Positions 8,623 through 60,235 of a stretch of DNA of 64,000 bases are shown here, piece after piece. Position 1 is the stretch's first letter, and each line of letters starts with the position of its first letter. The notes under the pieces were generated by a model that saw only the letters and a program-made list of their open reading frames with translations, was not told the DNA's origin and did not search any database. Source of the DNA: a candidate division WOR-3 bacterium (GTDB lineage: Bacteria; Hydrothermota; Hydrothermia; LBFQ01). The DNA lies in assembly GCA_039802605.1 (NCBI GenBank), contig JBDRWW010000003.1, forward strand, positions 32,001 to 96,000, given 5' to 3'. Made by a program: the position numbers and the translations under genes.

Positions 8623-8907
8623 ATGATAATGGTAGTAATAGCGCAAGTGGCAAATCCCTATGGGGTTTCAAGACCCCAAGATGTTATAAGGGTGAATATA
8701 TACGATGAGGCTTTTGCAAACTGCAACAGGTGTGTTGATAACCTGCAAAGGGAGATATACGAATACTTTTCTGGGAGTATAGAGTTTATAGCGTACTCCC
8801 AGTTGAAGAAATCGCTTATGATAAGGTATATAAACCCCATAGATACCGCGAAGTTGGGGGATATAATAAGGAAAGCGGGGGTAAAGGGGTATGAGATACG
8901 CTTTTAA
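8623..8907 (+). CDS. Small CxxC protein, possible HMA/ferredoxin-like fold, short hydrophobic N-terminus
   Basis: Strong SD; ANCNRCV motif; ends ...IIRKAGVKGY as in HMA-like domains. Confidence 0.5.
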   Translation: MIMVVIAQVANPYGVSRPQDVIRVNIYDEAFANCNRCVDNLQREIYEYFSGSIEFIAYSQLKKSLMIRYINPIDTAKLGDIIRKAGVKGYEIRF

Positions 8908-10516
8908 GGTTTTTGCGCTATTGAGCCTTTTGGTTTTGGGGCTTAAAGCCCAAACATGGGCGGGATTAAGCACATACGGGGGTACAAATTACGATCAGAT
9001 GTGGGCCATAGATTTCATGGGAGGTACAACACCCGTTCTTGGAATGTTTACTATATCCTATTCAATAAGTGGGAGCGATGAGGACTATGTTTTGATAACA
9101 CCATCTTGGCAAAAGGTTATAGGGAATACGGGTGGAAGGGATGACTGGATGTATAAGACCCAATGGCTAAACAGTGGAAATATAGTTGTAGGTGGTGCTT
9201 GGTGCAACGATGGGGGCGCTGGTCCTGGTAGTTGTTATGCACCGTTATACGGTTTTGTTGTGGGTTTAAACTCTTCGGGTAATTTTCTGTGGGGTAGGCA
9301 TTTGGATTTTTCAAACCTATGGGGATGCTCTGGGAATACGAATAGACAAACGAGGGTAATGCATGTATCACCGACAAGCGATGGCGGATTTTTGGCGGCG
9401 GGGTTTTTGACATATAATATTGATGATGGTTGGGGAAGCTGTATTACCAACGATGCAGACGGTTTCATAGCCAAGTTTAACTCTACCGCTAATCTTCAAT
9501 GGATAAGGATAGTGGATTGGGCTGCGGATTGGAATATAGCCACTACGGCTTTTGAAACGACGGATGGCAATTATGTCCTTTTGGCTCCGAGTTGGTATGA
9601 GGTAGGGGTTTTAAAGTTTGACCCAAGTGGTAGCCTTATCTGGCAAAGGAGGTATCCGAGGAGTATAGCGACTTCAACGATAACATTTTCTTGGGGGAAG
9701 CTCACAAGCGATGGTGGTTTCATTTTGGCCACCCATATAGCGGGTTCTGGTGATGATGCCCTGTTTATGAAGTTTAATTCATCGGGCAATTTTGTATGCG
9801 CCGCAGTTATATCAACATCTGGTAACGATTACGGTATAGATGTGGTTGAAGGGCCTAACTGGTATTGGATGACTGGGAGTTTGGGTGTAAGCGGCAACGA
9901 TCTGTTTATAGCGAAGATAAGGAAAACCGATTGCAATGTTATAGAGGTTAGGAGATTACTTTCGGGTGCGGATGAACAGGGGAGGAGTATGGATATAAGG
10001 CCCGTTATGGGTATCCCTTATGTTGCGGGATATACAAACAACACCGCTTGGTCTGTCGGAAATTATGACGGTTTGGTTGCGGCGGATTCCGGAGGATTGG
10101 ATACATGCTATTGGAGAAATTATTCTCCAACAATAACCTACCCGACATTTAGCGCATCCGGTTCGTTTACCGTATATTATCCAAGCATGAGCACCAGCGG
10201 TTATACCGTAAGCGTTCAGAACATTTCGGTTGCACGCAGGATAAACTGCGGATTGGATCCTTTGGGTGAAGGGGATGAAGAATTGGGAATGGATGAAAGG
10301 TTTGTTAGTTGCGAGATAAACTATACGGTGATAGGGAATAACCTGAGGTTAAGGGTGAAGTCCGAAAGGGGTGTGGATGTGAAAATATACACGCCAAACG
10401 GCGTTAAGGTTTTCGATGAGGGGTTTGTAAAGTCAGGCGTGTATAACATACCTTTGAGAAGGGGTGTATATTTCTTGAAGGCCGGAGGTAAAACCGAGAA
10501 GATTGTTATCCTGTAA
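8891..10516 (+). CDS. Secreted beta-propeller-like protein with T9SS type A-like C-terminal sorting domain
   Basis: Classical signal peptide ending LKA-Q; repeated TSDGGF/KFDxSGxLxW blades; C-terminus KIYTPNG...GVYFLKAGGKTEKIVIL. Confidence 0.7.
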   Translation: MRYAFKVFALLSLLVLGLKAQTWAGLSTYGGTNYDQMWAIDFMGGTTPVLGMFTISYSISGSDEDYVLITPSWQKVIGNTGGRDDWMYKTQWLNSGNIVVGGAWCNDGGAGPGSCYAPLYGFVVGLNSSGNFLWGRHLDFSNLWGCSGNTNRQTRVMHVSPTSDGGFLAAGFLTYNIDDGWGSCITNDADGFIAKFNSTANLQWIRIVDWAADWNIATTAFETTDGNYVLLAPSWYEVGVLKFDPSGSLIWQRRYPRSIATSTITFSWGKLTSDGGFILATHIAGSGDDALFMKFNSSGNFVCAAVISTSGNDYGIDVVEGPNWYWMTGSLGVSGNDLFIAKIRKTDCNVIEVRRLLSGADEQGRSMDIRPVMGIPYVAGYTNNTAWSVGNYDGLVAADSGGLDTCYWRNYSPTITYPTFSASGSFTVYYPSMSTSGYTVSVQNISVARRINCGLDPLGEGDEELGMDERFVSCEINYTVIGNNLRLRVKSERGVDVKIYTPNGVKVFDEGFVKSGVYNIPLRRGVYFLKAGGKTEKIVIL

Positions 10517-10543
10517 AATTTACATCCTTAAAATTCCCGCCTT

Positions 10544-12237: not shown

Positions 12238-12257
12238 CGGGTTTAAAATAACAAGTC

Positions 12258-14852: not shown

Positions 14853-14858
14853 CACTAT

Positions 14859-15584
14859 ATGTTGATGCTTTTAGGGGTTATGCCAAAGGCCATAACCTTA
14901 TACGAGGGTGATACGCTTTTACTCGGCAACTTTCCCAGATGGGGGTTTTTTAAAAATAGGGGGGTTGTGTGTAAGGTTGAGGAGGGTAACGCGGTTGAAT
15001 TAAGGGGTGACACTTTAATAGCCAAAAGCGTTGGCATATCCATAATTTTATGCGGAAAGGGGGAGATAGAGAGGGGTTTTGTTATAAGGGTTGTTCCGAA
15101 GGGGTTTGAAAGACCTGAACCCATATTTTTGCGTGTGGGTGAAAGGGTAAAACTTCCAAAATTCGGGTTTCCAGAGGAACTAAAAGTTTATTTTTTGGTA
15201 AAACCCCCTTGGTTGGCAAGGGTTATAGGGGATTCCTTGGAAGGACTTTCGGAAGGAAGGGGGATATTGCAGGTGCATATAGTTAAAGGTGATAGGATTT
15301 TGGACGAATTTCCAATACCATTGGTAGTTGAAGGGAAAAGTAAAGTTTATATTTCGCCAAAAATGGTGGTTTTAAGGGTTGGGGAGGCTACAAAGTTTTC
15401 AATTTCCGGAGATTATATTTCCGCCGATTGGCAAATTTTACCAAAGGGCGTGGGTGATATATCCGGTGATGGGGTTTTTACGGCTTTAAAGCCCGGAAAG
15501 GCCGTAATAATAGCAAAGGTAAGGTTAAAGGATGGGAGTGTGGCATCCGCAAAAGCCTTTGTGAGGGTATTAAAACGGCCTTAG
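14859..15584 (+). CDS. Hypothetical exported protein with Ig-like (Big_2-like) repeats
   Basis: ISPKMVVLRVGE...W...GDISGDGVFTALKPGKAVI pattern. Confidence 0.55.
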   Translation: MLMLLGVMPKAITLYEGDTLLLGNFPRWGFFKNRGVVCKVEEGNAVELRGDTLIAKSVGISIILCGKGEIERGFVIRVVPKGFERPEPIFLRVGERVKLPKFGFPEELKVYFLVKPPWLARVIGDSLEGLSEGRGILQVHIVKGDRILDEFPIPLVVEGKSKVYISPKMVVLRVGEATKFSISGDYISADWQILPKGVGDISGDGVFTALKPGKAVIIAKVRLKDGSVASAKAFVRVLKRP

Positions 15585-15594
15585 AATTCCCACT

Positions 15595-16134
15595 ATGGCT
15601 TTGTACGAAAGGTATAAAAACGAGATAAGGAAAAAACTGGCCGAGGAGTTAAATTTAAACATTATGGAGGTACCAAGAATAGAAAAGGTTGTGGTACATG
15701 TGGGTTGGGGTAGGGAGGCGGTTGAAGACCCCAAATCCTTAGAAATTGTAGCCCAAGACCTGGCCATTATAACCGGTCAAAAACCCGTAATCACTAGGGC
15801 GAGGAAATCTGTGGCGCAATTCAAGCTTAGGAAGGGCATGCCGATAGGTTTAAAGGTTACTTTGAGGAGAAAAAGGGCTTACGATTTCCTTGAAAGGCTT
15901 ATAAACTTTGCATTGCCAAGGGTTAGGGATTTTAGGGGTTTGCCCAAGGACGGATTTGACGGTAGGGGTTCCTATAACTTCGGTTTGAACGAGCACACAG
16001 CATTCCCCGAAATAGACATTGATAAGGTTCAAAGGGTTTTTGGGATGGACATAACCATAGTTACATCTGCCAAGAACGATGAGCTGGCCTATAGGCTGCT
16101 CGAGGCGATCGGTTTCCCCTTTGAAAGGGCATGA
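15595..16134 (+). CDS. rplE: 50S ribosomal protein L5 (isolated)
   Basis: ITGQKPVITRARKSVAQFKLRKG, LPRVRDFRG, FDGRG, GMDITIVT. Confidence 0.98.
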   Translation: MALYERYKNEIRKKLAEELNLNIMEVPRIEKVVVHVGWGREAVEDPKSLEIVAQDLAIITGQKPVITRARKSVAQFKLRKGMPIGLKVTLRRKRAYDFLERLINFALPRVRDFRGLPKDGFDGRGSYNFGLNEHTAFPEIDIDKVQRVFGMDITIVTSAKNDELAYRLLEAIGFPFERA

Positions 16135-17525
16135 AAAGGTTCTTATTCGTTTTGCCGTTTATAATTTCCTGTGCAACAACGGAGGAGGGGGCCGTGAGAA
16201 AAGAAACACAAAAGGAGATAAAACCCTTAACCATACCCGAAATAAAAACCGTTGAAAAAACCTTGCCAAACGGTCTCCACATAATTGCGGTAAAGAAGGA
16301 TAAACTGCCGATATTTTATATGGAGTTGGTTTTAAAGGCGGGTTCGGTTTTGGATCCCAAGGGTAAGGAGGGGTTGGCAAACCTGGTGGGGTCTCTGGTA
16401 GATGAGGGTACTAAAAACAAAACATCCGAACAGATAGCCGAATACATAGAAAGCCTTGGGGCGAACTTTAATGTATCCGTGGGTAAAACTAGAACGGAAA
16501 TTACGGCCAAATGTTTAACCCCGGATGCGGATAGCCTTCTGTCCATAGTATCCGAGATCGTTATGTATCCCACATTCCCCAAAAAGGAGTTTGAGAGGGA
16601 AAAGAGGAGGCAGATTTCAGGTTTAAAAAACAATTTGAGCAATCCAAATTATGTGACATTTGTTAAATTGGACAAACTGGTTTACGAGGGTACCCCTATG
16701 GAACACCCAACGGATGGTTATGTTGAAAGCGTTGAAAAAATAACCTTGGATGATGTTAATGAATTTTATAAAAACTATTGGCTACCAAATCTCTCCTATA
16801 TTGTGGTGGTTTCAAGTTTGGAGCCCGAAGAGGCTATAAGGAAAATAGAAATGTTCTTCGGGAATTGGCAAAAGAAAGAGATTTCACTCCCGGATATACC
16901 AAAGCCAAAGGGGGAAAAGAGGGTTGAGATATTCCATATGGATGGTATAAATCAGGCATATATCAGGCTTGCCTTCCCCGTGGATGTTCAGCGCAATTCT
17001 CCGGATTATAACAAGGTGCGTGTGGCAAATTACATTTTGGGAGGTTCCGGATTTTCAAGTAGGATTTTGAAAAAAATAAGGGTTGAAAAGGGATACGCTT
17101 ACTCGGCATACTCCTATGTTATGCCCAACATAGTTTGGAAGGAGGAGAATTACCCCTCAGTTTTCATAGCGGGTTTGCAAACCAGGGTTGAAACATCCGA
17201 AGATGCCGTTAACACTCTGGTGGAACTCATAAAAGAGGCAAAGGAAAAAGGTTTTACGGAAGAGGAATTAGATGCCGCCAAGAGTTTTTATAACGGTTAT
17301 ATAGCTAGGTTGTCGGAAACATATTCCCAAATAGCGGATTTAATATCCACGCAATACGAATACAAACTCCCAAATATGTTTTGGATTAAGGACATTGATG
17401 AGATAAGGTCATTAACCTTAAAGGATATTAACGAAACCGCGCGGAAACACTTTAATACGGAAAACTTTATCCTTTTGATAGTTACGGATACCACAAAGGT
17501 TAAGTTTAAAAACCTAAAAATTTGA
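16131..17525 (+). CDS. M16 peptidase family lipoprotein, non-catalytic subunit
   Basis: Lipobox IISC; LPNGL; HXXEH replaced by NLVGS; IRVEKGYAY R/Y motif. Confidence 0.8.
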   Translation: MKRFLFVLPFIISCATTEEGAVRKETQKEIKPLTIPEIKTVEKTLPNGLHIIAVKKDKLPIFYMELVLKAGSVLDPKGKEGLANLVGSLVDEGTKNKTSEQIAEYIESLGANFNVSVGKTRTEITAKCLTPDADSLLSIVSEIVMYPTFPKKEFEREKRRQISGLKNNLSNPNYVTFVKLDKLVYEGTPMEHPTDGYVESVEKITLDDVNEFYKNYWLPNLSYIVVVSSLEPEEAIRKIEMFFGNWQKKEISLPDIPKPKGEKRVEIFHMDGINQAYIRLAFPVDVQRNSPDYNKVRVANYILGGSGFSSRILKKIRVEKGYAYSAYSYVMPNIVWKEENYPSVFIAGLQTRVETSEDAVNTLVELIKEAKEKGFTEEELDAAKSFYNGYIARLSETYSQIADLISTQYEYKLPNMFWIKDIDEIRSLTLKDINETARKHFNTENFILLIVTDTTKVKFKNLKI

Positions 17526-18562: not shown

Positions 18563-18572
18563 AATTCCCATT

Positions 18573-19886: not shown

Positions 19887-19895
19887 AGGAGGAAA

Positions 19896-20387: not shown

Positions 20388-20398
20388 GGTTATAACCT

Positions 20399-21550: not shown

Positions 21551-21585
21551 TCGGATGGCGCTTTCAACCTTATAATACCCTCACC

Positions 21586-23172
21586 ATGCTCTGGATAATT
21601 TCTTTAACACAGCTTGCCGGAAGGTTTGAGGCGGAACCCTTAAACACCATAAAAAGGGTTCCAACCAACATAAGCGTAAATAATCCCATAAATTCCCTAA
21701 AACTCAACATATACCCAAAACCAATACCAAAGTCGGATTTTTATTTCAGGGCGCCAATAAACTGGTTGAACAATCATGTAAGCTCCGGACGCAATTCGGG
21801 TTTTGAACACAAAGTGGGTATAGGAATAAATTCCTTTAACGATCTCTGGTATGTTTATTCCTCATCGGATGGAGTATCAAACAACGATACTTTACATATC
21901 TTCTGCTCTTCGGATGGTGGAAACACTTGGCTTTATGTTGGAAATTTGGCCTCAAATAACCCCGCTAAGGGGATATTTGAACCATTTCTAAACATAAACC
22001 CTTCGGATAACTATCTTTATGTGATTTTCACCTATGCGAGGAAAAACTCTTATGGGAATTACAACGCCGATACCGTTTCCGTGTTAAGGTTTCAAACGAA
22101 TTCCGGATGCACAACCGTTTCCGGTACCCAAGGGGTTTTTCAGGTTAGCGCTTCATCTTGGTTATACCATACTGCGGTTATAGCCTCCGAACCCACAACA
22201 AGCTATGTATTTGCAATGCTTTTGGATCCGAGCGGATATGTAGATTTTTATAAATCTTCCGATAGAGGTGCTACTTGGACATACGCGAGGAGCTGGAATT
22301 CCGGGCCCTCATTTACAAGGTATTTCTGGGCTTCCTCAAAGGCGGGTGCCAACAGGGGTACATATTTCTCGTTTATAGAGATAAACGACGCCACGGACCC
22401 GCTTACGGGGGCGGATAACAAGTATTATGTTATGTACGCCGAATGGGGGAGTTCTCCGGATACTTTTAGATTATGGTGGTTTGGTCCTACAAGCGGGTAC
22501 GATTCCTTAGAGGGACCTATAAGCAATACCTTTTATTGCCGCCGCACATGTTCAACCCCCTTTGATAGCGTTTTCCTAATGACTTTTAGCAGAAAGACGG
22601 CTGGACCAAATGCCTACGCCGTTTTAATGAACAAAGGAATAGATACCACCATTTGGACCACAGTTATATTCGATTCTTTAAACAACAGACCTTACCGTTC
22701 CCCATCCGTAGCCTATGCTCCAAACGAGGGTAGGGTAATTTTGAGCGTATTATACGATTCGCTTAATACTCGTTTTGGAGTTTTAAGGGTTTGGGTTTCC
22801 TATCCGGATAGCACCCTTTACTGGACAAACTGGCTTGGCTCATCCCTTGACGCTTGGGATACCAAGGATTTGAAGGTTGATATGGGCAATATGCTTGAAC
22901 CATATGCTTTGAGTTCAGTCGTTAGGTATGCGACTCCGGGTGATTTTAGGGTCCATATAGCGTGGAGAAAGGTTAATGGTTCTACGGGAGGTGGGGATGC
23001 TTGGCATGCAACGCCCACGATAGCCTTTACAAGTGTAGAAGAATTTAAGAAAACATTAACCCTTAAAGGCGCTGTATTTTACGATGTTTTGGGTAGGAGA
23101 ATTAATAAGCCAACCAAAGGGGTTTTCTTCAAGGCGGTTGGGGGTAGGGTTGAAAAGGTTATACTTAGGTGA
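21586..23172 (+). CDS. Secreted Asp-box (BNR) beta-propeller protein with T9SS type A-like CTD
   Basis: Asp-boxes SSDGGNTW and SSDRGATW; C-terminus FYDVLGRR...GVFFKAVGGRVEKVILR. Confidence 0.65.
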   Translation: MLWIISLTQLAGRFEAEPLNTIKRVPTNISVNNPINSLKLNIYPKPIPKSDFYFRAPINWLNNHVSSGRNSGFEHKVGIGINSFNDLWYVYSSSDGVSNNDTLHIFCSSDGGNTWLYVGNLASNNPAKGIFEPFLNINPSDNYLYVIFTYARKNSYGNYNADTVSVLRFQTNSGCTTVSGTQGVFQVSASSWLYHTAVIASEPTTSYVFAMLLDPSGYVDFYKSSDRGATWTYARSWNSGPSFTRYFWASSKAGANRGTYFSFIEINDATDPLTGADNKYYVMYAEWGSSPDTFRLWWFGPTSGYDSLEGPISNTFYCRRTCSTPFDSVFLMTFSRKTAGPNAYAVLMNKGIDTTIWTTVIFDSLNNRPYRSPSVAYAPNEGRVILSVLYDSLNTRFGVLRVWVSYPDSTLYWTNWLGSSLDAWDTKDLKVDMGNMLEPYALSSVVRYATPGDFRVHIAWRKVNGSTGGGDAWHATPTIAFTSVEEFKKTLTLKGAVFYDVLGRRINKPTKGVFFKAVGGRVEKVILR

Positions 23173-26684: not shown

Positions 26685-26807
26685 AGTTTGGTATTCTAAG
26701 TTGGAAAATGTTGTTTTGGATAAAGGGCACAGGAATCCTTATTACTCGGCTTAGTACTTCCCAAAATAGTATTTTATAATAAATTTACCGCTTTATAATA
26801 TTTGGCT

Positions 26808-35870: not shown

Positions 35871-35871
35871 G

Positions 35872-47031: not shown

Positions 47032-47057
47032 AATACCAACCTTAAAATACCCGCAAT

Positions 47058-48335: not shown

Positions 48336-48360
48336 CAATATGGGGTAAGGTAGGCATAAT
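48332..48360 (+). promoter_or_regulatory. rRNA promoter TTGACA-17-CATAAT
   Basis: Near-consensus hexamers about 65 nt upstream of the 16S 5' end. Confidence 0.85.
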
Positions 48361-48365
48361 TGAGA

Positions 48366-50027
<1,662 letters not shown>

Positions 50028-50032
50028 ATTCT

Positions 50033-51139
50033 TTATTTTAAAAGCGGGTGGTGGGTATTAAGATAATCGGCAACCCTTTTAACCTCATCCCATATATAGG
50101 CGCTGGATTTTGTGGTTTCCTTATCAAATATGTATTCTATATCAACACCGTATTTTGAGGCCTTTTCCTTCCATTCCCTTGGTATTTCATCGCTTATACT
50201 AACATTTAGCAGTTTTGAAAGCAGTATAGTCCATAACCTGCAAACATTTCCCACATTATAACCGCCACCTCCCAGGGCCAAAACCGGGATGTTTAAAGAA
50301 AGAACAAAATCATAAACATGAATGTAGGAATTTGTAGTTAAATTCCAATGCGTTAAAGGGTCTTCCCTTATAGCATCCGCACCGCTTTGTAAAACCACAA
50401 CCGATGGGTTAAATTTCCGTATGGCTTTTTTAATAACATTTTCAAAAGCCCATATAAACACATCATCTCCGGAATTTGGGGGGAAAGGAAAGTTTAAAGC
50501 GTACCCAAAACCCTCACCCTCTCCCATTTCATCCTCAAATCCAGTCCCCGGAAATAGATATTTACCGCTTTCGTGGGTGCTTATTGTTAAAACCCTGCTA
50601 TCTTTATAAAAAGCCTCTTGAACCCCATCCCCATGATGGGCGTCTATATCGAGGTATAAAACCTTATCAAATCTTTCGAGGAGTTTATATATGGCAACTA
50701 CCGGGTCGTTTATATAACAAAAACCACTCGCTCTGTCCGACATGGCATGGTGTAATCCTCCCGCCATATTAAACGCCCTATTCCCCCCTAGATTTATGTA
50801 TTCGGCAGCAGCCTGGGATGAACCGGCCGCCAAAAGCGAAGCCGTATATATTCCCGGAACAACCGGGCAATCACCCGTTCCCAAACCGTAGTATATCATA
50901 TAGTCCTTCCATTCACCCTTATCGGCAACCTCTAAAACCTTTAAGTAATCCTCTTCGTGAAATTTTCTAACCAATTGTAAATCGGCCATTTTTGGATAAA
51001 GAAAATCAACGAAATTTAGCAAACCCTTTAACCTTTGCAATTCTTGGGTTAAATAAAGTCTGTACATTTTTAGGGGATGGTATTCCCCATAGGAATACCT
51101 CCAAAATGGCGATGTATCTACAAAACCCGTATGTACCAT
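50033..51139 (-). CDS. acuC: Histone deacetylase family / AcuC-like deacetylase
   Basis: HPLK..R, GGLHHA, SGFCYIND, DIDAHHGDGVQ, GGGGY. Confidence 0.85.
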   Translation of the reverse strand: MVHTGFVDTSPFWRYSYGEYHPLKMYRLYLTQELQRLKGLLNFVDFLYPKMADLQLVRKFHEEDYLKVLEVADKGEWKDYMIYYGLGTGDCPVVPGIYTASLLAAGSSQAAAEYINLGGNRAFNMAGGLHHAMSDRASGFCYINDPVVAIYKLLERFDKVLYLDIDAHHGDGVQEAFYKDSRVLTISTHESGKYLFPGTGFEDEMGEGEGFGYALNFPFPPNSGDDVFIWAFENVIKKAIRKFNPSVVVLQSGADAIREDPLTHWNLTTNSYIHVYDFVLSLNIPVLALGGGGYNVGNVCRLWTILLSKLLNVSISDEIPREWKEKASKYGVDIEYIFDKETTKSSAYIWDEVKRVADYLNTHHPLLK

Positions 51140-51699
51140 TTTAAGAATTTTAACATCGCTTTAAACCTGTGGCTTATTTTGTTTTTCTCCTCGGGTGTCA
51201 TTTCCGCAAGGGTTTTATCGTATCCCTTTGGTATGAACACTGGGTCGTATCCAAAACCGTACTTCCCCCTCTCGCTTTTTGTTATTTCACCATCCAATAC
51301 CCCTTTAAAAAATTCCATCCTTTCCCCATCGTAATAAGAAATTACGGTTATAAACCTCGCCTTCCTGTTTTCCTCATTTTTCAATAAGTACAAAAGTTTT
51401 TCCCTGTTATCCCTATCCGTTGCACCCTTTCCCGCAAATCTGGAAGAGTATATGCCCGGAGATCCGTTTAAGGCGTCCACGAACAAACCGGTATCCTCCC
51501 CAATTGAAGGAATCCCGGTATTGTTATATCCGTATTTGGCCTTTATTAGGGCGTTTTCCTCCAATGTTTTACCCGTTTCATCGGGTGTGTTTAATCCAAA
51601 ATCCGAAAAGGAATAAACATCTATGCATATTCCCACAATGGATTTTATTTCAAAAACCTTATGCTTATTTGATGTTGCCAATAGGATCCTAGGTCTCAT
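51118..51699 (-). CDS. rdgB: Non-canonical purine NTP pyrophosphatase (Ham1)
   Basis: ATSNKHK, ENALIKA, EDTGL, GFGYDPVF, KNKISHR. Confidence 0.95.
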   Translation of the reverse strand: MRPRILLATSNKHKVFEIKSIVGICIDVYSFSDFGLNTPDETGKTLEENALIKAKYGYNNTGIPSIGEDTGLFVDALNGSPGIYSSRFAGKGATDRDNREKLLYLLKNEENRKARFITVISYYDGERMEFFKGVLDGEITKSERGKYGFGYDPVFIPKGYDKTLAEMTPEEKNKISHRFKAMLKFLKWYIRVL

Positions 51700-52304
51700 A
51701 TACCAAACTTTATGTAATACCTCGCACCGAAATAGAAATTGCTATAAGCGACGTTAACCTCCTCCAAATCCCCCGTAGAAAAATCCACCTTTTTGAACTT
51801 TAAAGAAAAAATATTTACACCCGTAAATATGTCAAAGTCTTCAAGCCTTAGGGCAAAACTAAAATTTAAAAGATAACCGAAACCCTTATACTGCTCACTT
51901 TTATCCTTTGCTATTTCTTGCCAAGCGCTTTGTGTAGTATCGTAAAGGTATAAGGAATATTTTGTGTTTAAAATCGTGTAGTTTCCACCCCCTCCCAAAC
52001 CAACCAAAGCATACATATTTTCACCTACATAAAACTTCATAAGCATATTTAAGGAAAAGGGGATGTAGTTTGCCTGGGAGGTTCTTTTCAGTTTAACCCT
52101 ATCGCTACTGTCCGAAAATGGCTTTTGAAAAAAATAAGTGTATCCCGTTTCCAAACCCGCCCCGAATAACTCGCTTATACCAAAGAAATACCTAAAACCC
52201 ATATCCGCCCCTATGCCCGTTGATGCGTAATTTGAAAACTCTTCAAATGGAATCCTTCCGTGAACCCCAAAGGATAAATCCATTGAGGATATTATCCAAA
52301 TCAT
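51696..52304 (-). CDS. Outer-membrane beta-barrel protein (OmpW/OmpA-TM like)
   Basis: Amphipathic strands, YIPF, C-terminal FYFGARYYIKF. Confidence 0.6.
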   Translation of the reverse strand: MIWIISSMDLSFGVHGRIPFEEFSNYASTGIGADMGFRYFFGISELFGAGLETGYTYFFQKPFSDSSDRVKLKRTSQANYIPFSLNMLMKFYVGENMYALVGLGGGGNYTILNTKYSLYLYDTTQSAWQEIAKDKSEQYKGFGYLLNFSFALRLEDFDIFTGVNIFSLKFKKVDFSTGDLEEVNVAYSNFYFGARYYIKFGI

Positions 52305-52326
52305 AGCGGATATTTTAAAGTCGTTG

Positions 52327-53325
52327 TTATCTCATTTTTGCCTCTCCGTAAATCCTGTTGAAATTCTTGGAAAACCTTTCCGCCATTGCTTTACTAAAAA
52401 TTATAACAACATTTTCGTCGTTAAGTTCCTGGGCATTCCTTGAAAAGTTATACGAACCCGTTATAACAATGCTGTCATCCACTATGATATACTTGGAGTG
52501 CATATTATAAGGGTTCCCATCCCTTAAAACATCTATGCCGTTTTTTACGAACTTGTTATACTCAGAACCCCTATTTTTTACGCTTTTGCTCTCAATGACG
52601 CCCGCAACGTTAACGCCCCTTTTCTTAGCATAAACCAATGCATTACCCAATTCGTTATCCGAAAAAGAAAAGGCTGCAAACTTTATATTTTTCCTGGCCA
52701 TATTGACGATTTTTATAATCCTCGCCTCTACATCATCCTCCGGTGAGAAATAAACCTCCACCCTATAAGGTCCAACTTTAAAACAGCAATCCGTATTTCT
52801 CGGAGATAACGCCCCGAATTTTTTATCTTCAAACATCTCGTAAAACTCCCTTAAATAGTTTTCCGCTATGAGGCGTGAATTTATAACCACCAAATTGTTA
52901 TCATTCCTGTATATTTCACTCTCTTTAAAGTTTGTTGAGCCAGTTAATATCAATTGGGAATCTATTACGGCAAACTTGTTATGCATATAGGGTTCCCTGT
53001 TATCAAAGACTATTGGAATTCCTTCCTTTTCCAATTTTTTGGCCGCCCATTCTTTTTTCATCCTATCGTCCATAACCATCTCAACCTTTACACCCCTCTT
53101 TTTTGCTTCTATAATTGCCCTTACTATATCCGGGTGGTCTATTTCGTATATTGCTATTTGTAATGTTTTGCGTGATGAGTTTATCAATCCCACTATAACA
53201 TTCAATACCGTATCCTCCCTTGTGAAGAACACCTGTATATCATCCGTAAGGGTTTTTGGTGCCTCTAATTTACTTCCCCCAAAGCAACCCGATAATACCG
53301 TTAATATTATAAGCAGCCTTTTCAT
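52327..53325 (-). CDS. Phospholipase D/Nuc-family lipoprotein with two HKD motifs
   Basis: Lipobox LSGC; HNKFAVID..TGSTN and HSKYIIVD..TGSYN. Confidence 0.88.
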   Translation of the reverse strand: MKRLLIILTVLSGCFGGSKLEAPKTLTDDIQVFFTREDTVLNVIVGLINSSRKTLQIAIYEIDHPDIVRAIIEAKKRGVKVEMVMDDRMKKEWAAKKLEKEGIPIVFDNREPYMHNKFAVIDSQLILTGSTNFKESEIYRNDNNLVVINSRLIAENYLREFYEMFEDKKFGALSPRNTDCCFKVGPYRVEVYFSPEDDVEARIIKIVNMARKNIKFAAFSFSDNELGNALVYAKKRGVNVAGVIESKSVKNRGSEYNKFVKNGIDVLRDGNPYNMHSKYIIVDDSIVITGSYNFSRNAQELNDENVVIIFSKAMAERFSKNFNRIYGEAKMR

Positions 53326-53328
53326 ACT

Positions 53329-55659
53329 TTAAAATGTTGTCCCTATTTGGAAGTGTGGTCTAAAGCCCTTTGAGGGTTCGTCAAATCCATAACCTATATC
53401 TATCCCCATTATTCCCAGCATCGGTATATTTGCCCTAACACCTAAACCAGCAGATCTTTTGAGGTTTTTAATATCAACCGTCCTCAACTCCCACCAGGCA
53501 TTCCCCCCTTCCAAGAATCCCAAAAGGTATATATTCTCGTTCAACCTAATCCTAAATTCGTATGTTAAAACCGTAAAAACCTTACCGCCTATTACATTAT
53601 AACCCACCTTTGTGCCAACGCTTCTCAGGTCATACCCCCTCAAACCGTAAAACCCCACATCCCCGAGTATGAAGTACTCAAAAAATGGTATATCCTTATC
53701 GGTTGAAAGTCCGTTTAGCAATCCACCCCTAATTCTGAAAGCGTTTATAAGTTTATCCCCGCCAAAGAATGGAAAGGGTTTGTAATATTGTATTTCCGGA
53801 AAATGCCTTAAAAAATTCACATTGCCGCCCAAAGGACCTCCCACCAAATCCAACTGGTATGAAACCCTTAAACCGCTTATTGGGTTAAAAATCCTATCCC
53901 TTGAATCGTAATAAACCGTCCCCGTAGCCGATGACATATACAAAGCGTTTTTATCCTCCCAATAGTCGTAAAAGGGTTGTCCCTGATACTTTTTGTCTAT
54001 GTTAAAAACCTGCAATCTTTCAAGCCTATAACCGGTATTAAACCCCCAGTATGTCCCGAATATCCTTCTACCCACATCGGCGGATATACCCGCCTTTCTC
54101 TGCCAAAAGTCAAAGTAATATTGGGTTAAATAATAGGCGCTCCCCCCAAGGCTTGTAGGTCCGTTTAAAAACCAAGGTTCCCTAAAAGATATTAAAAAGT
54201 TCTTCCTATAACCACCCCATTCAAGTCTTATTTCCCCGTACTGCCCCTTTCCAAAAAGGTTTGGCTGTTGCAATGCCAAATTTCCAAACAAACCCTCCAA
54301 CTGGCTATAACTCGCCCCGGCGCTTATTTGCCCGGTTGGCCTCTCCTTAACTTTAACCACGAGATCAATCCTTTGGGAATCACCAGGAATAGGTCTAATA
54401 TCCGGTAAAACATTTTCAAAATACCCCAGATAATAAAGGTTCCTCAAACTCCTCATAAGTAATGTCCTGGAAAAGTAATCCCCGGGAAAGAGCATAAATT
54501 CCCTACGCATGACATAGTCGTATGTTCTATTGTTTTGCGAAAAATCTATGAACCTGACCCTAACCCTCCAATTTTCCGTAATGTTAAAGTTATAACTCAT
54601 CTTATCGCCTTCTTTTTTCTCTTCGAATCTTAGGTTTGCGTATATATATCCCGAATCCGCGTACAACCCCAAAACCTCCCCCCTTGCCATTTCAAACTTT
54701 TCCTTTGAATATAACCCCCTTTCTAAGGCCTGGGGGGCCCTATACCAAAACCCATACTTCAACCAATCAAATATACTCGGTTTTTTAAAAACTATACTTT
54801 TAAACCTCTCTTCTAGGGTTTTGCTATCAAAAACCTCATTCCCCTCAAAGGACACATCTCCAAATTTATACTTTTTGCCCTCTGTTACATAAACAACTAT
54901 ACCCATATAACCGTTTTCTAAGGGATATACGGAAAAGGAATCAACCTTTGCCTCCGGGTATCCGTGATTGTGATAAAACTCTTCAACCCTTCTTATATCC
55001 TCTTCCCATTTATCGTCGTTAAACACATACCAACTCGTCAATCTCAAGTACCACTTGTATTCTTTTGTGTGAAGGATTTTTTTTAATGTCGCGGATGAAT
55101 ACGCATTGTTTCCCTTAAAGTCTATAAAGCCTACCTTGAATTTTTCGCCTTCATATACCTTGAAAATTATAACCGTCTCCCCGTTTTTGTCCGGCTCCTT
55201 TATCTCGTAATCAACCCTTGCGTTAAGGTATCCCTTTTTCTTATAGATGTTTTCAATGGTTTTTTTCATCGCAAAAATGTTTTTCTCTGTGGCGGCTTTG
55301 TTCTTAAAAACCTTATTCAAAGTGTCAATTAAAGATTTACTTTTAACATTTTTTGCGCCCTGTATCTCAAACTTTTTTATCCTAGGAGCCTCTTTAAAAA
55401 CGAAGAGCATATCAATGGTATCCTTACGGAGCATACCGAGGACCTTTATATCGTCAAATATGCCCAGATTCCAAACCCTATCAAGGGCCTGCTTGAAATC
55501 CATGGCTGTTAATCTTTGTCCCCTTTGTAGCCTCAAAGCGCTCCTTATAACCTGATGGTTTGTCCATTTAACATCCAAAATCTGTATTTCCCCTATATAA
55601 ACCTCCTTTGGTATGGGTTTTGCGGTATCGACTTGCAAAACTAAAATACCTAAGAGCAT
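53329..55659 (-). CDS. bamA: Outer membrane protein assembly factor BamA
   Basis: Five POTRA-like repeats, NLFGKG, LRGY motif, C-terminal FQIGTTF. Confidence 0.93.
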   Translation of the reverse strand: MLLGILVLQVDTAKPIPKEVYIGEIQILDVKWTNHQVIRSALRLQRGQRLTAMDFKQALDRVWNLGIFDDIKVLGMLRKDTIDMLFVFKEAPRIKKFEIQGAKNVKSKSLIDTLNKVFKNKAATEKNIFAMKKTIENIYKKKGYLNARVDYEIKEPDKNGETVIIFKVYEGEKFKVGFIDFKGNNAYSSATLKKILHTKEYKWYLRLTSWYVFNDDKWEEDIRRVEEFYHNHGYPEAKVDSFSVYPLENGYMGIVVYVTEGKKYKFGDVSFEGNEVFDSKTLEERFKSIVFKKPSIFDWLKYGFWYRAPQALERGLYSKEKFEMARGEVLGLYADSGYIYANLRFEEKKEGDKMSYNFNITENWRVRVRFIDFSQNNRTYDYVMRREFMLFPGDYFSRTLLMRSLRNLYYLGYFENVLPDIRPIPGDSQRIDLVVKVKERPTGQISAGASYSQLEGLFGNLALQQPNLFGKGQYGEIRLEWGGYRKNFLISFREPWFLNGPTSLGGSAYYLTQYYFDFWQRKAGISADVGRRIFGTYWGFNTGYRLERLQVFNIDKKYQGQPFYDYWEDKNALYMSSATGTVYYDSRDRIFNPISGLRVSYQLDLVGGPLGGNVNFLRHFPEIQYYKPFPFFGGDKLINAFRIRGGLLNGLSTDKDIPFFEYFILGDVGFYGLRGYDLRSVGTKVGYNVIGGKVFTVLTYEFRIRLNENIYLLGFLEGGNAWWELRTVDIKNLKRSAGLGVRANIPMLGIMGIDIGYGFDEPSKGFRPHFQIGTTF

Positions 55660-55723
55660 AAGCGGTTATTTTATTGCCGTTTTGTTTTTAGTTAGTACCT
55701 TTCCACTTTAAAATATCCGCGCT

Positions 55724-55963
55724 ATGAAAATTACAAAAGAGACAACGGTGGAAGAGGTAGTTGTAAGGTATCCGGATGCCGTTGATATATTTTTCAAATA
55801 CGGGATTCCCGCCATAGCGTGCGGGACACCTATATGGGGCACCATAGGGGAAAATGCGGAAAGGTATGGGGTGAAGGATTTAGGTGGTTTGTTAAGGGAG
55901 CTGAACGAATTGGTGGAAAAGAAAGGGGAGATGGATATTAAACTCAACCCTATAAACGAATAA
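55724..55963 (+). CDS. DUF1858-like small protein
   Basis: ITKETTVEEVV..YP....F..YG..C...TI...A...G. Confidence 0.75.
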   Translation: MKITKETTVEEVVVRYPDAVDIFFKYGIPAIACGTPIWGTIGENAERYGVKDLGGLLRELNELVEKKGEMDIKLNPINE

Positions 55964-55990
55964 AACAAGCTTATAATATCCGCTTCATAA

Positions 55991-56064
55991 GGGCGCGTAG
56001 CTCAGGTGGTTAGAGCGCTCGTTTGACATGCGAGAGGTCGGAGGTTCGACTCCTCCCGCGCCCA
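55991..56064 (+). tRNA. tRNA-Val(GAC), CCA not encoded
   Basis: Acceptor GGGCGCG/CGCGCCC+A; anticodon arm CTCGT-TTGACAT-GCGAG; GGTTCGACTCC T-arm. Confidence 0.95.
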
Positions 56065-56065
56065 T

Positions 56066-57031
56066 TTGAACCTCCCTTTATCCAACGAATACCTTGTTTG
56101 GTTCGTTAAAGTTGCGGGTATTCTGTTCGTAATCCTTACGGTAGCCGCCTATATGGTTTGGGCTGAGAGGAGGGTATCCGCTTGGATGCAGGACAGGATA
56201 GGGCCAAACCTCGTGGGACCTTTTGGTTTATTGCAACCCTTGGCGGATGTCATTAAACTCGCCTTTAAAGAGGACATAACCCCCTTTGTCGCGGACAAGC
56301 TCTTGCACTTCATAGCGCCGGGATTAATTATGACGGCCCCCGTTTTAGCCGTTTCGGTTATACCCTTTGCACCCGGTTTATGGATTGCGAATCCGGATTT
56401 CGGCCTCCTCTGGCTTCTCGGTGCCACATCAATCGCGGCCTACGGGGTTATACTGGGTGGCATCGCCGGGGGTAGCAAGTATCCCCTTTTGGGGAGTTTG
56501 AGGTCAATGTCCCAGATTGTGTCTTATGAACTTCCAATGGGTATATCCGCCTTGGGCCCGGCGGTTATGGCCGGTTCGTTATCCTTGGTTGATATAGTTG
56601 AAGCGCAAAAAAACCTGTGGTTTATAGTTCCCCAATTTATAGGTTTTTTGGTCTTTCTCATTACAACATATGCCGAAACCAACAGGCTACCCTTTGACCT
56701 GCCGGAAGCCGAAGCGGAATTAACGGGTGGGTATCATACGGAGTTTTCTTCTTTAAAGTTTGCATGGTTCTTTGCCGGAGAGTACGCCAATATGGTTATA
56801 GCATCGTCTTCCGTAAGCATATTGTTCTTGGGGGGATGGTATGGTCCCTTTGCGCCGGGATTACACTGGACAATACTAAAAATATCCTTCTTTTTGTTCC
56901 TATTCCTCTGGGTTAGATGGACCCTACCTAGGTTTAGGTTTGACCAGTTGATGTTTTTCAGCTGGAAGGTTTTACTCCCCTTATCTTTGCTTAACTTGGC
57001 CATTGCAACCATTTTGAAGGTAATGTGGTAA
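56066..57031 (+). CDS. nuoH: NADH-quinone oxidoreductase subunit H (isolated)
   Basis: ERRVSAWMQDRIGPN, GLLQPLAD, ETNRLPFDLPEAEAEL, RFRFDQLM. Confidence 0.96.
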   Translation: MNLPLSNEYLVWFVKVAGILFVILTVAAYMVWAERRVSAWMQDRIGPNLVGPFGLLQPLADVIKLAFKEDITPFVADKLLHFIAPGLIMTAPVLAVSVIPFAPGLWIANPDFGLLWLLGATSIAAYGVILGGIAGGSKYPLLGSLRSMSQIVSYELPMGISALGPAVMAGSLSLVDIVEAQKNLWFIVPQFIGFLVFLITTYAETNRLPFDLPEAEAELTGGYHTEFSSLKFAWFFAGEYANMVIASSSVSILFLGGWYGPFAPGLHWTILKISFFLFLFLWVRWTLPRFRFDQLMFFSWKVLLPLSLLNLAIATILKVMW

Positions 57032-57387
57032 AGGGTATAGGGGTGGATGTTGTTAATCTACGAAGGTTTGAAAGGGTTTTAATCAAGACCCCTAGAATAA
57101 AAAACAGATTGTTTACGCAAAGGGAAATAGAGAATTCTTACTCTTTATGGAATTTGGCCGGAAAGTTTGCCGCGAAAGAAGCGGTTTTAAAGTCCGTGGG
57201 TTTGGGTTTGAGTAATGGATTGTGCTGGCACGATGTGGAGATTATTGGAAATTTCAATTCCCCACCAAAAGTTATACTAAGCCCTAAGGCGAAAGAAATT
57301 ATACCCAATGTGGAATTTTTCCTTTCAATATCCCATGAGAGGGATTTTGTTGTGGCGGTATGTTTGGCCGTATTATCAAATACCTGA
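57025..57387 (+). CDS. acpS: Holo-ACP synthase
   Basis: [22 protein letters not shown]. Confidence 0.92.
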
Positions 57388-57797
57388 AATCCCAAATTGA
57401 GCCTTCACCTTCGGAGTTAAAGGGTTTGTTTGTTTTGTTAATATTGGGTTTTATCGGCGTTGGGTACGACTATTACCAAAAACTTAAAACCCCAAAGGGT
57501 ATTACCTTTACAAAGGTTTCCAAGGACTTAAAGATTTTTGAGGATACTTCCTTATTCGTAGTTGAAAGGAGGGAATTTTACCGCAGAAAACCTTTAAGGG
57601 GCGGTGAGAAGATAAATATAAATACGGCAAGCGTTGAAGAGCTCATGAGGATTCCGGGAATTGGCCCCAAGATGGCTCAAAGGATTTACGAATATCGCCG
57701 AAAGTTTGGGAAGTTCAAAAGTGCAGACGAACTTATAAATATAAAGGGTATAGGTCCAAAAAAATTACAAAAGATAAAGCCCTATATTACCCTATGA
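57360..57797 (+). CDS. comEA: ComEA-family helix-hairpin-helix DNA-binding protein
   Basis: N-terminal TM; ININTAS.EEL..IPGIGPK.A, IKGIGPK. Confidence 0.85.
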
Positions 57798-59784
57798 GGT
57801 TTTCGGATATAGCCTCCGATATGTCCCTCACCTTTTCCGGTTCCAAACCCTTTGATTTTACACCGTCGGTAATCATTGTCATACAGAAAGGACAACCCAC
57901 AACGATTTCATCCGGGTTTTTACCCAGCAATTCCTCCGTCCTCTCCAAGTTTATCTTTTTTCCAATCTTTTCTTCCAACCACATCCTACCGCCACCGGCA
58001 CCACAGCAGAACGAATTATTCCTACTCCTATCCGCTTCCAAAACATCCCCCAAAGATTTTAATATATCCCTTGGTTCGTCGTATATTCCGTTATGCCTTC
58101 CCAAATAACACGGGTCGTGGAATATGTATTTTTTGTCGGTCTTTTTTACCTTAATCTTCCCGAGTTTTAAGAGCATGCTAAGATATTCCGAATGGTGATA
58201 AACCTTTATGCTTTTGTCCAAACCGAAATCCGGGTATTCGTTTTTTATGGTATGATAACAGTGAGGACAGGATGCAATTATAGCCTTAGGCTTGTATTTG
58301 TTGAGAGTTTCAACATTTTGAACCGCAAGCATTTCAAATAAGTACTCGTTTCCCGTCCTCCGCGCGGAATCTCCCGTGCATGTTTCCTCTATACCCAGTA
58401 TGGCCACATCAACGCCTGCGGATTTTAAAAGACTAACGACCGTCCTGGCGACTTTTGAATATCTCTGGTCGTAAGAGGCGGCACACCCCGCCCAATACAG
58501 TACTTCAAAATTGGGATTTTCATAGGCCCTTTTTACATCCAATCCCTCGGCCCACTTTTCCCTGTTTTCTGCCGGCATATTCCAAGGATTTCCCTGATTT
58601 TCCATCCCCCTATAAGCATTTGAAAACCCCACCTCTTTACCTTCCATAAGGATTTGCCCCCTCCTTATTTGGAGTATGGTGTATAACTGCTCATTACCCA
58701 CGGGACAAATCTCCACACAGGCGCCGCATGTGGTACAGGCCCAAAGGGCATCCTCGTTTATCGCAAAATCCATTAGCGGCCTTAAACCTTCACCGTTTGC
58801 AAATTTTTTAAGGTTTTGGTTGATCTCGTACCGAATGTTTATTATTAATGCGGATGGCGAAAGGGGTTTTCCGGTAAAGTTTGCCGGGCATACATCCTGA
58901 CACCTGTTGCACATTATACAGGCATAAGCATCCATTATTTGTGCCCACGGTAAATCCTCCAAATTTTTGGCCCCAAAAACCTCTTCCTCTCCCCCCTCCT
59001 CTTGAAGTTTTTCCATAAGGTTTAAAGGTTCGACATATCCGTATGGCTTATCCCTCCTAACCGACCACCTTACCGGGGCAAAGAATATGTGTATATGCTT
59101 TGAGTACGGAAAGTATGGGAAAAAGGCGAGTATTGAACCCAATGCCAACCACCAGAATAAATGTTCGAGAATGGTTTTAAACCCCTCGGGTATCCCATTC
59201 AAGATTAAAAATATGGATGATGCAAAGGGCTGAAATGTATCAAATGAGGAAAGCGATAAAGATTGGTGTAAAACCCTTGAAAACACATGGGTAAAAATGA
59301 ATACGAGCACTATAAGGGAATCCCTTAATATGCCGCTTAGAGCCTTTTCATGAAGGGGAACATTTTCGGGAAAGAATAGCCTTTTATCCTTTACAACATA
59401 TCTGCGGATACCGAAATATATTACGCCAATTAATGCCAAAAGGCTTAAAATATCCGATACAAGGTTAAAAGCGCTCTGCAAAGGTGTGTTTCCAAAGAGA
59501 TTAAAACCGTATATATAACCCCTTATCACATCCTGCAAGTTTACAAGGGCATATACCAAGAAAGCCCAAAGGATGAATGCGTGGAAAATGGAGGTTATAA
59601 ACCTCGCTTTAAATATGGGTTTTTGAAGTATTAGGGCCTGAATCCCCAACCACAAATTTACCCTTCTTTTCTCGCTTTTCCCCCTCTTTATCGCATTAAT
59701 TGCGGCTGAAAAGTTTTTATAAGTTAAGTATCCGGAAAGCAAAAGTAGAACGATAAATAAAACCTTTTCGTATATGGTTAGCAT
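57787..59784 (-). CDS. Membrane Fe-S oxidoreductase (FadF/HdrD/GlpC-like)
   Basis: TM N-terminus, two CxxCxxCxxxCP ferredoxin motifs, CCG-type domains ([23 protein letters not shown]). Confidence 0.88.
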
Positions 59785-59848
59785 AAGTGGGAATTTTACC
59801 CTCGGGAAATTTGTTTGGGTTTAAAACACCTTTAAAATTTCCAAACTC

Positions 59849-60235
59849 ATGTTATTAGCGTTTATACTATCGCAAAACCAAGATACCTTAGAGGATACAT
59901 TAAAGCGTAAGGATATCTTTATAAAATCACCCGTTAAAGCCGCTTTGAGGTCGGCGGTTATTCCGGGATGGGGGCAGTTTTACAACGGTAGAGCATTTAA
60001 AGGCCTAATACTTGGAGGGTTTTCCTTTGTATCCCTCGGTTGGACATTGAAAACTTTTAACGATTACAGGATGAAGGGGGATAATCAAAGCGTATCCAAA
60101 TTTTTGGGGGCTTTGATAGTTAATATAGCGGTTTGGGGTTATACTATTGCCGACGCGTTCGTTGATGCGTATTTATACGGATTTGAGGCCGAGAGGGATA
60201 CGGTTTTAAAGGATATAGAGGTTAAAAAGCATTAG
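59849..60235 (+). CDS. DUF5683-like membrane protein
   Basis: KSP.KAALRSAVIPGWGQFYN, DAFVDA. Confidence 0.7.
   Translation: MLLAFILSQNQDTLEDTLKRKDIFIKSPVKAALRSAVIPGWGQFYNGRAFKGLILGGFSFVSLGWTLKTFNDYRMKGDNQSVSKFLGALIVNIAVWGYTIADAFVDAYLYGFEAERDTVLKDIEVKKH

Follow-up and report, generated by a model that had tools for sequence, protein, structure and literature searches.

The 64-kb window considered here, by which we mean the whole stretch of DNA (G000:C3:32001-96000), comes from the genome of a candidate division WOR-3 bacterium, G000, which is 1.65 Mb long in 23 contigs and about 90% complete. Classical Sec signals have n-, h-, and c-regions and about 18-30 residues. Several proteins encoded in the window, including BamA, instead begin with methionine and a very short, hydrophobic, uncharged run, which we call a stub. 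The original prediction listed ten such N-termini, among them BamA with MLLGILVL before Gln and an in-frame TAA 9 nt upstream, and all ten are in the sequence where it placed them (Table 1). We checked them by stop-to-stop translation of the larger open reading frames (ORFs), from the DNA around the ten starts, and with a coordinate script. Between the TAA (55666-55668) and the ATG of BamA lie only two codons (Pro and Leu), and this TAA consists of the last T of a TAAAAT box and the AA that follows it. Export, cleavage, and leaderless transcription are, throughout, predictions from sequence analysis.

The names given to these proteins hold to different degrees. BamA is solid, with POTRA and Omp85 domains found by Pfam. 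The protein at 26808 had been called a TonB receptor, and it has a weak TonB-receptor-like barrel confined to the C-terminus (NCBIfam TonB receptor models at 23-38 bits, the best at 37.7 against a cut-off of 472) and no Pfam match. A PorV-like identity for the protein at 34599 is likewise only suggested, with a score under the model's cut-off. The description of the protein at 21586 as cargo bearing the C-terminal domain (CTD) of the type IX secretion system (T9SS) did not hold, as it has no CTD, Pfam, or NCBIfam match and belongs to no known family; the protein at 52304 also lacks a Pfam or NCBIfam match and a known family. The tetratricopeptide repeat (TPR) protein at 35872 has YbgF/BamD-like repeats (TIGR02795, 3e-54; TIGR03302, 4e-37; Pfam TPR families).

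The ten stubs do not belong to the other common signal types. None has Cys at the junction, so there is no lipobox, and the lipoproteins of the genome keep classical MKR…C signals. The stubs contain no Arg and hence no twin-arginine translocation (Tat) motif, although TatC is encoded in the genome. They also differ from prepilin-type (class III) signals, as they begin hydrophobic and then pass into polar mature sequence. Classical signals are retained in the window by two lipoproteins (16131 and 53325) and by the proteins at 8891 and 41166, as had been claimed.

Table 1. Positions of the short N-termini, of classical signals given for contrast, and of further features of the window. Boxes are -10-like hexamers; SD, Shine-Dalgarno sequence.
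Feature	Position	Strand	Basis
BamA, 776 aa; stub MLLGILVL (55636-55659) then Q	53329-55659	-	Pfam POTRA 3e-47, Omp85 2e-39
BamA box TAAAAT, 8 nt before ATG (element 55666-55673)	55668-55673	-	coordinate script
Box TATAAT (26794-26799), 8-nt spacer, stub MMWIIAV (26808-26828) then D; 568-aa protein	26794-26828	+	
Stub MVILLLS then Q; 423-aa PorV/PorQ-like protein, FlgD_ig-like C-terminus	34599-34619	+	PorV_fam 29.8 bits (cut-off 90); FlgD_ig 2e-6
Box TAAAAT (52312-52317), 7-nt spacer, stub MIWIISSM (52281-52304) then D; 202-aa protein	52281-52317	-	
Box TATAAT (21571-21576), 9-nt spacer, stub MLWIISLT (21586-21609) then Q; 528-aa protein	21571-21609	+	
SD GGAGG (35858-35862), uncharged start MLTASLMLFAMSY (35872-35910) then N; 850-aa TPR protein	35858-35910	+	
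Stub MTIWLISLL then D; 276-aa protein, SD-led; stop of upstream gene abuts ATG	45132-45158	+	
Box TAAAAT (59833-59838), 10-nt spacer, stub MLLAFILS (59849-59872) then Q; DUF5683 protein	59833-59872	+	PF18935 4e-14
SD GGAGG (8612-8616), stub MIMVVIA (8623-8643) then Q; 94-aa ORF	8612-8643	+	
Stub MLMLLGVM then P; 241-aa protein, 2 codons after upstream stop	14859-14882	+	
Contrast: classical lipoprotein signal MKRFLFVLPFIISC of M16 peptidase	16131-16172	+	
Contrast: second classical lipoprotein signal MKRLLIILTVLSGC	53284-53325	-	
Contrast: classical type-I signal MKRYLILLAFFGLPVLGYA then Q	41166-41225	+	
Contrast: classical type-I signal MRYAFKVFALLSLLVLGLKA then Q	8891		
16S rRNA gene, full length	48425-49976	+	1422 bits
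Four genes after the TPR gene, 234/143/150/359 aa	38442-41161	+	size and order
tRNA	3849-3933		
tRNA	55991-56064		

Extent of the stub class and evidence bearing on export

Genes of G000 were called crudely, from stop-to-stop ORFs with a hexamer coding score and greedy removal of overlaps, which gave 1618 genes, and each N-terminus was taken from the first possible ATG, GTG, or TTG of the call. The stub class was defined as Met followed by 5-11 residues without charge, of which four or more are strongly hydrophobic, and then Q, P, D, N, E, K, R, or H. A stub start is found in 175 of the 1618 genes (10.9%). In the histogram of uncharged run lengths, counts drop from 0 to 4 residues and rise to a second peak at 6-8. 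For 95 of the 175, no more than five sense codons separate the upstream stop from the start. With the proteins' own internal methionines as the reference, run lengths 6-9 are enriched only 1.1- to 1.65-fold, a modest figure because transmembrane helices inflate that control.

A better control comes from other genomes, to which the script used for G000 was applied. Within the same order, the stub share was 9.3% in a genome of another family (G013, 100 kb), 11.8% in one of the same family (G007, 140 kb), and 16.2% in a pool of four same-family genomes (160 kb). The samples from outside the order, of 400 kb each, gave 4.7% in another order of the same class (G020) and 2.4%, 3.7%, and 5.6% in other classes (G066, G052, and G076, respectively). 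Pooled, stubs make up 226 of 2008 genes in the own order against 58 of 1425 in the four outside genomes (odds ratio 3.0, p 7e-15, a p value that overstates the case as the genomes compared are related).

The stubs also have a characteristic composition. Trp stands at position 3 in 36 of the 175, and I, L, V, M, or F at position 2 in 149. Following the Met, stubs have 5-11 uncharged residues (mode 6-8), which is at or below the lower limit of the usual h-region of about 7-15 residues. Mean Kyte-Doolittle hydropathy is 2.48, against 2.28 for the classical cores of G000. In 136 of the 175 proteins there is no transmembrane-like segment past residue 15, and the stretch of 12 residues that follows the stub is slightly acidic (net charge -0.33, versus +0.18 in non-stub N-termini).

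Four lines of evidence do not depend on the definition of the stub class: BamA orthologues, T9SS cargo, orthologue pairs, and the residues at the junction. Among BamA loci of the own class with a complete 5' end, 19 of 19 start short and uncharged, with the ATG taken as the start of one ambiguous locus (L014); one further locus, which runs off its contig, was left out. The hydrophobic residues vary (MILFLLV-Q, MITFFVL-Q, MLLIFLS-Q, MILLLIG-Q, MWLFLTA-Q, and others), while Gln directly follows the stub in 17 of the 19. The upstream stop may be TAA, TAG, or TGA, and the same promoter layout recurs in relatives, as TAGAAT-AG or TAGAAT-AA. In another family of the same class, the BamA gene has a Shine-Dalgarno sequence (SD) and encodes a leader of about 13 residues, one of which is Lys (M-FSKILVLLLAS-Q). 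In other classes most BamA signals are classical (MRKYWLTLIFLLVFTTSFA-Q, MKKIFLF…) and some are short and uncharged (MTSLLLALLLAT-Q). The predicted BamA leaders form a gradient, short in the own class, intermediate in the other family, and mostly classical in other classes. The original prediction had allowed for assembly errors absent from close relatives; the same architecture recurs in 19 independently assembled genomes.

Cargo of the T9SS has to reach the periplasm before it can be secreted further, and so bears directly on export. The T9SS CTD model TIGR04183 has 28 matches over its cut-off in G000, of which six were dropped (five run off a contig and one is a fragment). Classified by script, the remaining 22 complete proteins comprise 16 with stubs, three with classical signals, and three with neither. 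Two of these calls are debatable by eye: C3:130200 was scored as classical through an upstream TTG yet has MLWVISLA, and C6:11248 was scored as a stub through an internal TTG yet resembles a long basic signal. The T9SS translocon protein SprA (an ORF of 1829-1842 aa on G000:C4) itself starts with MIILLAYT-D from a GTG codon, and SprA was found in all five genomes of the genus that were searched. As a separate observation, a 654-aa CTD ORF (G000:C4:109385-109537, minus strand) lacks an ATG, GTG, or TTG codon near the point where its frame opens (IAFTLFRVYGGGGGD…), and may use a non-canonical start or be truncated.

Reciprocal-best pairs between G000 and the 400-kb sample of G066, from another class, include 11 in which the G000 protein carries a stub. 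In eight of them the G066 partner has a classical signal of 19-28 residues with a Lys/Arg n-region, and the alignment begins directly after both signals; in the remaining three the proteins are cytoplasmic in both genomes. The clearest pair sets MVLFLLS/QWSFGQNKVDYKDLKWKV in G000 against MKKMIFLFLFLFVLSLSTFS/QTTNFGKNKIQYKDYKWKV in G066 (the slash marking the presumed junction), with the mature starts also given as QWSFGQNKVDYKD and QTTNFGKNKIQYKD, respectively. Partners from G020, of the same class and another family, have intermediate leaders of 11-15 residues. The stubs, as putative signals, are positionally homologous to the classical signals of their orthologues.

Gln is the commonest residue after a stub (40 of 175). 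Signal peptidase I requires a small residue at position -1, and before Gln this position is A, G, S, T, or C in 60% of stubs, against 15-17% at -2 to -5. Pro follows 32 of the 175 stubs. Because Pro cannot be +1 of a signal peptidase I site, the cut in many of these proteins, if there is one, must lie elsewhere; such signals probably extend a few residues further (as in MLLLISIPAFA/R) or are left uncut. Apart from the stubs, the classical type-I signals of G000 often end in A before Gln (…GLKA-Q, …GYA-Q, …VVFA-Q, …PLFA-Q, …FA/Q, …YA/Q).

Taken together, these comparisons show that the predicted starts cannot be extended, are enriched in the own order, lie on proteins that must be exported, and replace the classical signals of orthologues. 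We conclude that the short predicted export N-termini are real and a trait of the lineage.

Promoters at the start codon and the export machinery

Five of the ten stub genes in the window have a -10 hexamer (TAAAAT or TATAAT) 7-10 nt before the ATG and no SD; for the gene at 34599, the patterns used matched neither element. The arrangement is widespread. In 467 of the 1618 genes of G000 (about 29%), TAnAAT ends 5-10 nt before the start codon, with a peak at 8-9 nt. When these 467 sites are aligned on the hexamer, C stands at -6 in 94%, although it was absent from the search pattern, with C at -3 in 67%, T at -1 in 64%, and an A-then-T-rich tract upstream, giving the consensus tttCAaCCtTAnAAT-aCCCg. 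A canonical -35 element was rejected, as TTGACA at a spacing of 16-18 nt barely exceeds random expectation (at least four matches in 17% versus 12.5% of controls), and the extended motif with C at -6 gives a better description of the putative promoter than a -35 box does. As read from DNA, the motif tttCAaCCtTAnAAT is a lineage-specific candidate promoter. The nearby upstream stops arise because TAA or TAG sits inside the TAnAAT-A box.

A -10 box adjoining the start codon points to leaderless mRNAs. The box is commoner in stub genes (78 of 175) than in other genes (389 of 1443; odds ratio 2.2, p 3e-6). Since 38 of the 175 stubs are SD-led, the two traits are associated yet not identical. The share of starts adjacent to a -10 box is 25-35% in the own order and 2.4-8.9% in the four outside genomes, the same split as for the stubs. 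Over window positions 50100-60500, three hot-spring metatranscriptomes contributed 0, 0, and 1 reads, too few to define 5' ends, and an older RNA run yielded eight short contigs without 5'-end information.

The original prediction raised the possibility of an adapted SecA, SecY, or signal peptidase. All of these, and YidC, look ordinary at the Pfam level in G000; the large lineage-specific change is another one, in that Ffh, FtsY, and SRP RNA (of the signal recognition particle, see below) were not found. SecA (978 aa; L048, G000:C3:23203-27693) has normal DEAD, preprotein-binding, P-loop, and wing/scaffold domains. Its SecA_DEAD match covers residues 9-505 and the preprotein-binding domain begins only at about residue 333, which suggests around 100 extra residues before the latter. 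By eye, the C-terminus lacks the Cys-rich zinc tail, which fits with SecB not being found in G000. SecY (443 aa) and YidC (449 aa) are encoded, as is a single LepB of the S26 family (223 aa), in which SSSMENTL and KRVIALEGD boxes can be recognized by eye.

For the signal recognition particle (SRP), G000 gave no match to SRP_SPB (the Ffh M domain), to the ftsY model, or to the small or large SRP RNA. The best match to the SRP54 GTPase domain (PF00448) scored 20.8 bits and was ruled out as an SRP GTPase, Pfam showing a RadA/KaiC-type ATPase with a zinc ribbon. A tblastn search of G000 with four Ffh proteins from the same phylum returned nothing under E 0.008. The pattern extends to the own class, where SRP_SPB was found in 0 of 31 genomes, the best SRP54 match was 28.5 bits, and there was no real FtsY match. 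These 31 genomes are of free-living organisms and are 1.2-2.3 Mb in size; 23 are of high quality, some being 99-100% complete in 3-4 contigs.

Among 81 genomes sampled evenly across the phylum, Ffh was found in 46, FtsY in 50-55, and SRP RNA in 49, the last in exactly the families with Ffh. The ftsY model gives two strong matches (FtsY and Ffh) in SRP-bearing genomes, a single weak match of 90-110 bits in families f16, f20, and f24, and none in the 15 own-class genomes (G000 included) or in families f10, f22, f23, f25, and f32. Small SRP RNA was likewise found in 0 of the 15 own-class genomes. As controls, the searches detected SRP proteins in 14 of 14 known genomes and small SRP RNA in 12 of 14. 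Assembly gaps hardly explain the absence because three unlinked genes share one family-level pattern. The neighbors of ffh in SRP-bearing relatives are not conserved, so no "empty site" can be demonstrated. Free-living organisms with genomes of 1.2-2.3 Mb and no SRP would be remarkable.

Interpretation and known systems

We think that the stubs are probably, though far from certainly, N-terminally truncated, cleavable signals for Sec and signal peptidase I. Under this reading, each would consist of fMet and 5-11 very hydrophobic residues (I, L, V, or F, often with Trp at position 3), a remnant of a type-I signal that has lost its basic n-region and about half of its hydrophobic core and kept the end of the h-region and the cleavage site. 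Higher hydrophobicity may compensate for the short length. The nascent stub would reach SecYEG without SRP, probably by way of SecA, the obvious targeting factor because SRP and SecB were not found. Having no basic anchor at the cytoplasmic face, the short peptide might slide deep enough, toward the outer leaflet, for LepB to cut, typically after a small residue and before Gln. The N-terminal Gln may then cyclize, at about 80 °C perhaps without an enzyme. About half of the stub genes would be transcribed as leaderless mRNAs from a -10 box 5-10 nt upstream. Because stubs associate with leaderless genes, they may have originated when a promoter arose beside an internal Met, Leu, or Ile codon, yielding a leaderless transcript and a truncated signal that the lineage tolerated.

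The original prediction proposed either a minimal targeting signal or an uncleaved anchor, and the first of these agrees with true N-termini on exported proteins. The second is less likely, since the small residue at -1 before Gln favors cleavage and 7-9 residues are too short to span the membrane. A related alternative is an uncleaved Sec export tag, too short to anchor, that would remain part of the mature protein or be trimmed off by a different protease. This would account for the stubs followed by Pro, for the lack of a clear -1 rule before D, E, or N, for L, V, or F at -1 in 15 of 40 Gln-type stubs, and for the single LepB being an ordinary S26 enzyme in which no adaptation is obvious by Pfam. 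We nevertheless regard it as unlikely, given the concentration of small residues at -1 before Gln, the conservation of that Gln after a variable stub in BamA, and orthologous classical signals that end at the same Gln. One could also envisage a lineage-specific route that arose with the loss of SRP, such as a dedicated factor reading M-x-W-I/L-I/L or head-first threading. The preferences at positions 2 and 3 are tighter than those of a generic core, Ffh, FtsY, SRP RNA, and SecB were not found, and there is no basic n-region to orient a hairpin. Such a route nonetheless seems improbable, as no candidate factor was identified, SecA, SecY, and YidC are ordinary by Pfam, the stubs are positionally homologous to classical signals, and other families of the phylum that lack SRP still have classical BamA signals.

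Two further explanations would do away with the phenomenon itself. If the true starts lay upstream, through non-canonical starts, frameshifts, read-through, or assembly errors, the stubs would be artefacts, and some long upstream open frames (48 codons before 21586) and, in a few T9SS genes (C3:130200), an upstream TTG that would bring in a basic stretch might be cited in support. We find this scarcely credible, and the sequences already largely refute it. The stop upstream of BamA is two codons away, the same architecture appears in independent assemblies with different upstream stops, upstream frames are short in more than half of the class (95 of 175), and the upstream DNA is a conserved promoter motif rather than coding sequence. 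An alternative genetic code or read-through was ruled out, as ORFs are long and compact under table 11 and the BamA upstream stops differ, and so was a frameshifted upstream exon, because no signal-like peptide is encoded before any of the ten starts in either of the other two frames. It is also very improbable, in our view, that the stubs have no role in export and are chance hydrophobic N-termini or a by-product of first-codon constraints in leaderless genes. Stub and leaderless shares do rise together in the own order, about a quarter of stub calls are cytoplasmic, and the enrichment over internal methionines is modest. Yet 16 of 22 complete CTD proteins, BamA, and SprA carry stubs and no other signal, a fraction of the stubs are SD-led, and orthologues carry classical signals at the same place.

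Several observations weigh against truncated, cleavable signals as we have described them. We know of no Sec signal so short and uncharged, and in the usual hairpin model a helix of 8 residues is too short to cross a leaflet. The class is impure, with roughly a quarter of its members likely to be false positives on the 2.4% baseline of G066; three of the 11 G066 pairs and several of 15 G020 pairs are cytoplasmic, such as MCGIVG-type amidotransferases. At the junction, L, V, or F at -1 in the Gln-type stubs noted above is joined by a small residue at -3 in only 15%, stubs followed by D/E or by P/N have no clear -1 preference (39-42% small), and the Pro-type stubs cannot be cut at that point. 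Classical type-I signals, some ending in A before Gln, and lipoprotein signals are still common in G000, and their coexistence with the stubs indicates that the cell is still able to use them; no rule was found in G000 for which protein has a stub and which a classical signal. No PF05096-type glutaminyl cyclase was found in G000, by a search limited to that type and not extended to others (M28-type). Finally, the SRP-less families f20, f22, f24, and f25 have classical BamA signals and the SRP-bearing families f12 and f26 have short uncharged BamA leaders. The type of BamA leader does not track SRP, and loss of SRP as the cause of short signals is unsupported across the phylum.

A broader idea, possible but in our estimation rather doubtful, is that the whole hyperthermophilic Caldipriscus-type (WOR-3) order has rebuilt the first step of export. 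It would do without SRP, its receptor, and its RNA, leave about a third of its genes leaderless, and use an uncharged signal of 7-10 residues that is recognized differently, for example, by SecA/SecYEG reading at the ribosome exit with no charge-anchored hairpin. If true, this would provide both a natural minimal signal and a free-living organism without SRP.

Compared with classical Sec signals, the stubs share their place at the extreme N-terminus of envelope proteins, a hydrophobic core, and, in the Gln type, a small residue before the presumed cut, and SecA, SecY, and LepB are all encoded. They differ in having no Lys/Arg n-region, in their length of about 7-12 versus about 20 residues, in a -3 position that is not small, and in the frequent Trp at position 3. 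They also make up about one-tenth of gene calls across an order and are not a single odd protein. The stubs would descend from Sec/signal peptidase I signals, yet they lack the basic n-region that defines such signals and have an h-region at or below the usual length. Engineered signals in E. coli (n-region mutants and polymeric Leu/Ala cores) show that export does not strictly depend on a basic n-region and that greater hydrophobicity can make up for length, in constructs of reduced efficiency. The stubs resemble these in being slightly more hydrophobic than the classical cores of their own genome; they differ in being the natural majority form for T9SS cargo and in their use by essential outer-membrane machines.

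Leaderless mRNAs are common in Deinococcus-Thermus, Actinobacteria, and archaea, and the genes described here resemble them in the close -10 box and the lack of an SD in 467 of 1618 genes. The differences are that the candidate promoter motif tttCAaCCtTAnAAT is lineage-specific and that leaderless expression is here a prediction from the DNA motif. To our knowledge, a link between leaderless genes and truncation of signal peptides has not been described before. The Q-rule of Bacteroidetes (PMC5837995, PMC10653852) offers a parallel in the Gln that follows 40 of 175 stubs, 17 of 19 BamA stubs, and many classical signals; in Bacteroidetes, however, the signals are of normal length with a basic n-region. 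In PMC5837995 the rule is described as specific to Bacteroidetes and said not to hold for the whole Fibrobacteres-Chlorobi-Bacteroidetes (FCB) group or related phyla. The Q-rule-like pattern seen here lies outside Bacteroidetes.

Life without SRP has precedents in the laboratory. The SRP has been described as universally conserved, and Streptococcus mutans mutants (PMC8546722) and E. coli suppressor strains (PMC7844537, 10.1101/2021.01.06.425660) are reported to live without Ffh/FtsY. SecA is also reported to scan the ribosomal tunnel (PMC6692507), and might on that account substitute for SRP. Unlike these mutants, the present case concerns 31 free-living genomes of a class and several other families of the phylum. 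For WOR-3/Caldipriscus, our literature search turned up no account of ultra-short signals, a high share of leaderless genes, or a lack of SRP. In their main texts, four papers (PMC12285271, PMC12542636, PMC11696919, and PMC4791363) make no mention of signal peptide, signal recognition, or ffh, and two of them (PMC12285271 and PMC12542636) make none of ftsY. What is new here is the connection with leaderless promoters and the apparent lack of an SRP system.

Basic signals of about 20 residues are the textbook form and are assumed by prediction tools and secretome surveys. If stubs suffice for export, current predictions probably miss much of the secretome and envelope proteome of these abundant hot-spring bacteria, and SecA/SecYEG and signal peptidase I would need less information than has been thought. 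Stubs would then also be of practical interest for secretion engineering, especially in thermophiles. Their co-occurrence with leaderless genes suggests a route by which promoters beside internal start codons truncate signals, and the apparent absence of SRP raises the question of how membrane proteins are targeted without it.

Other features of the window

The window also contains an isolated full-length 16S rRNA gene, the 64 kb giving no match to 23S or 5S, and two tRNA genes (Table 1). The four genes that follow the TPR gene resemble an exbB-exbD-exbD-tonB series by their size and order alone.

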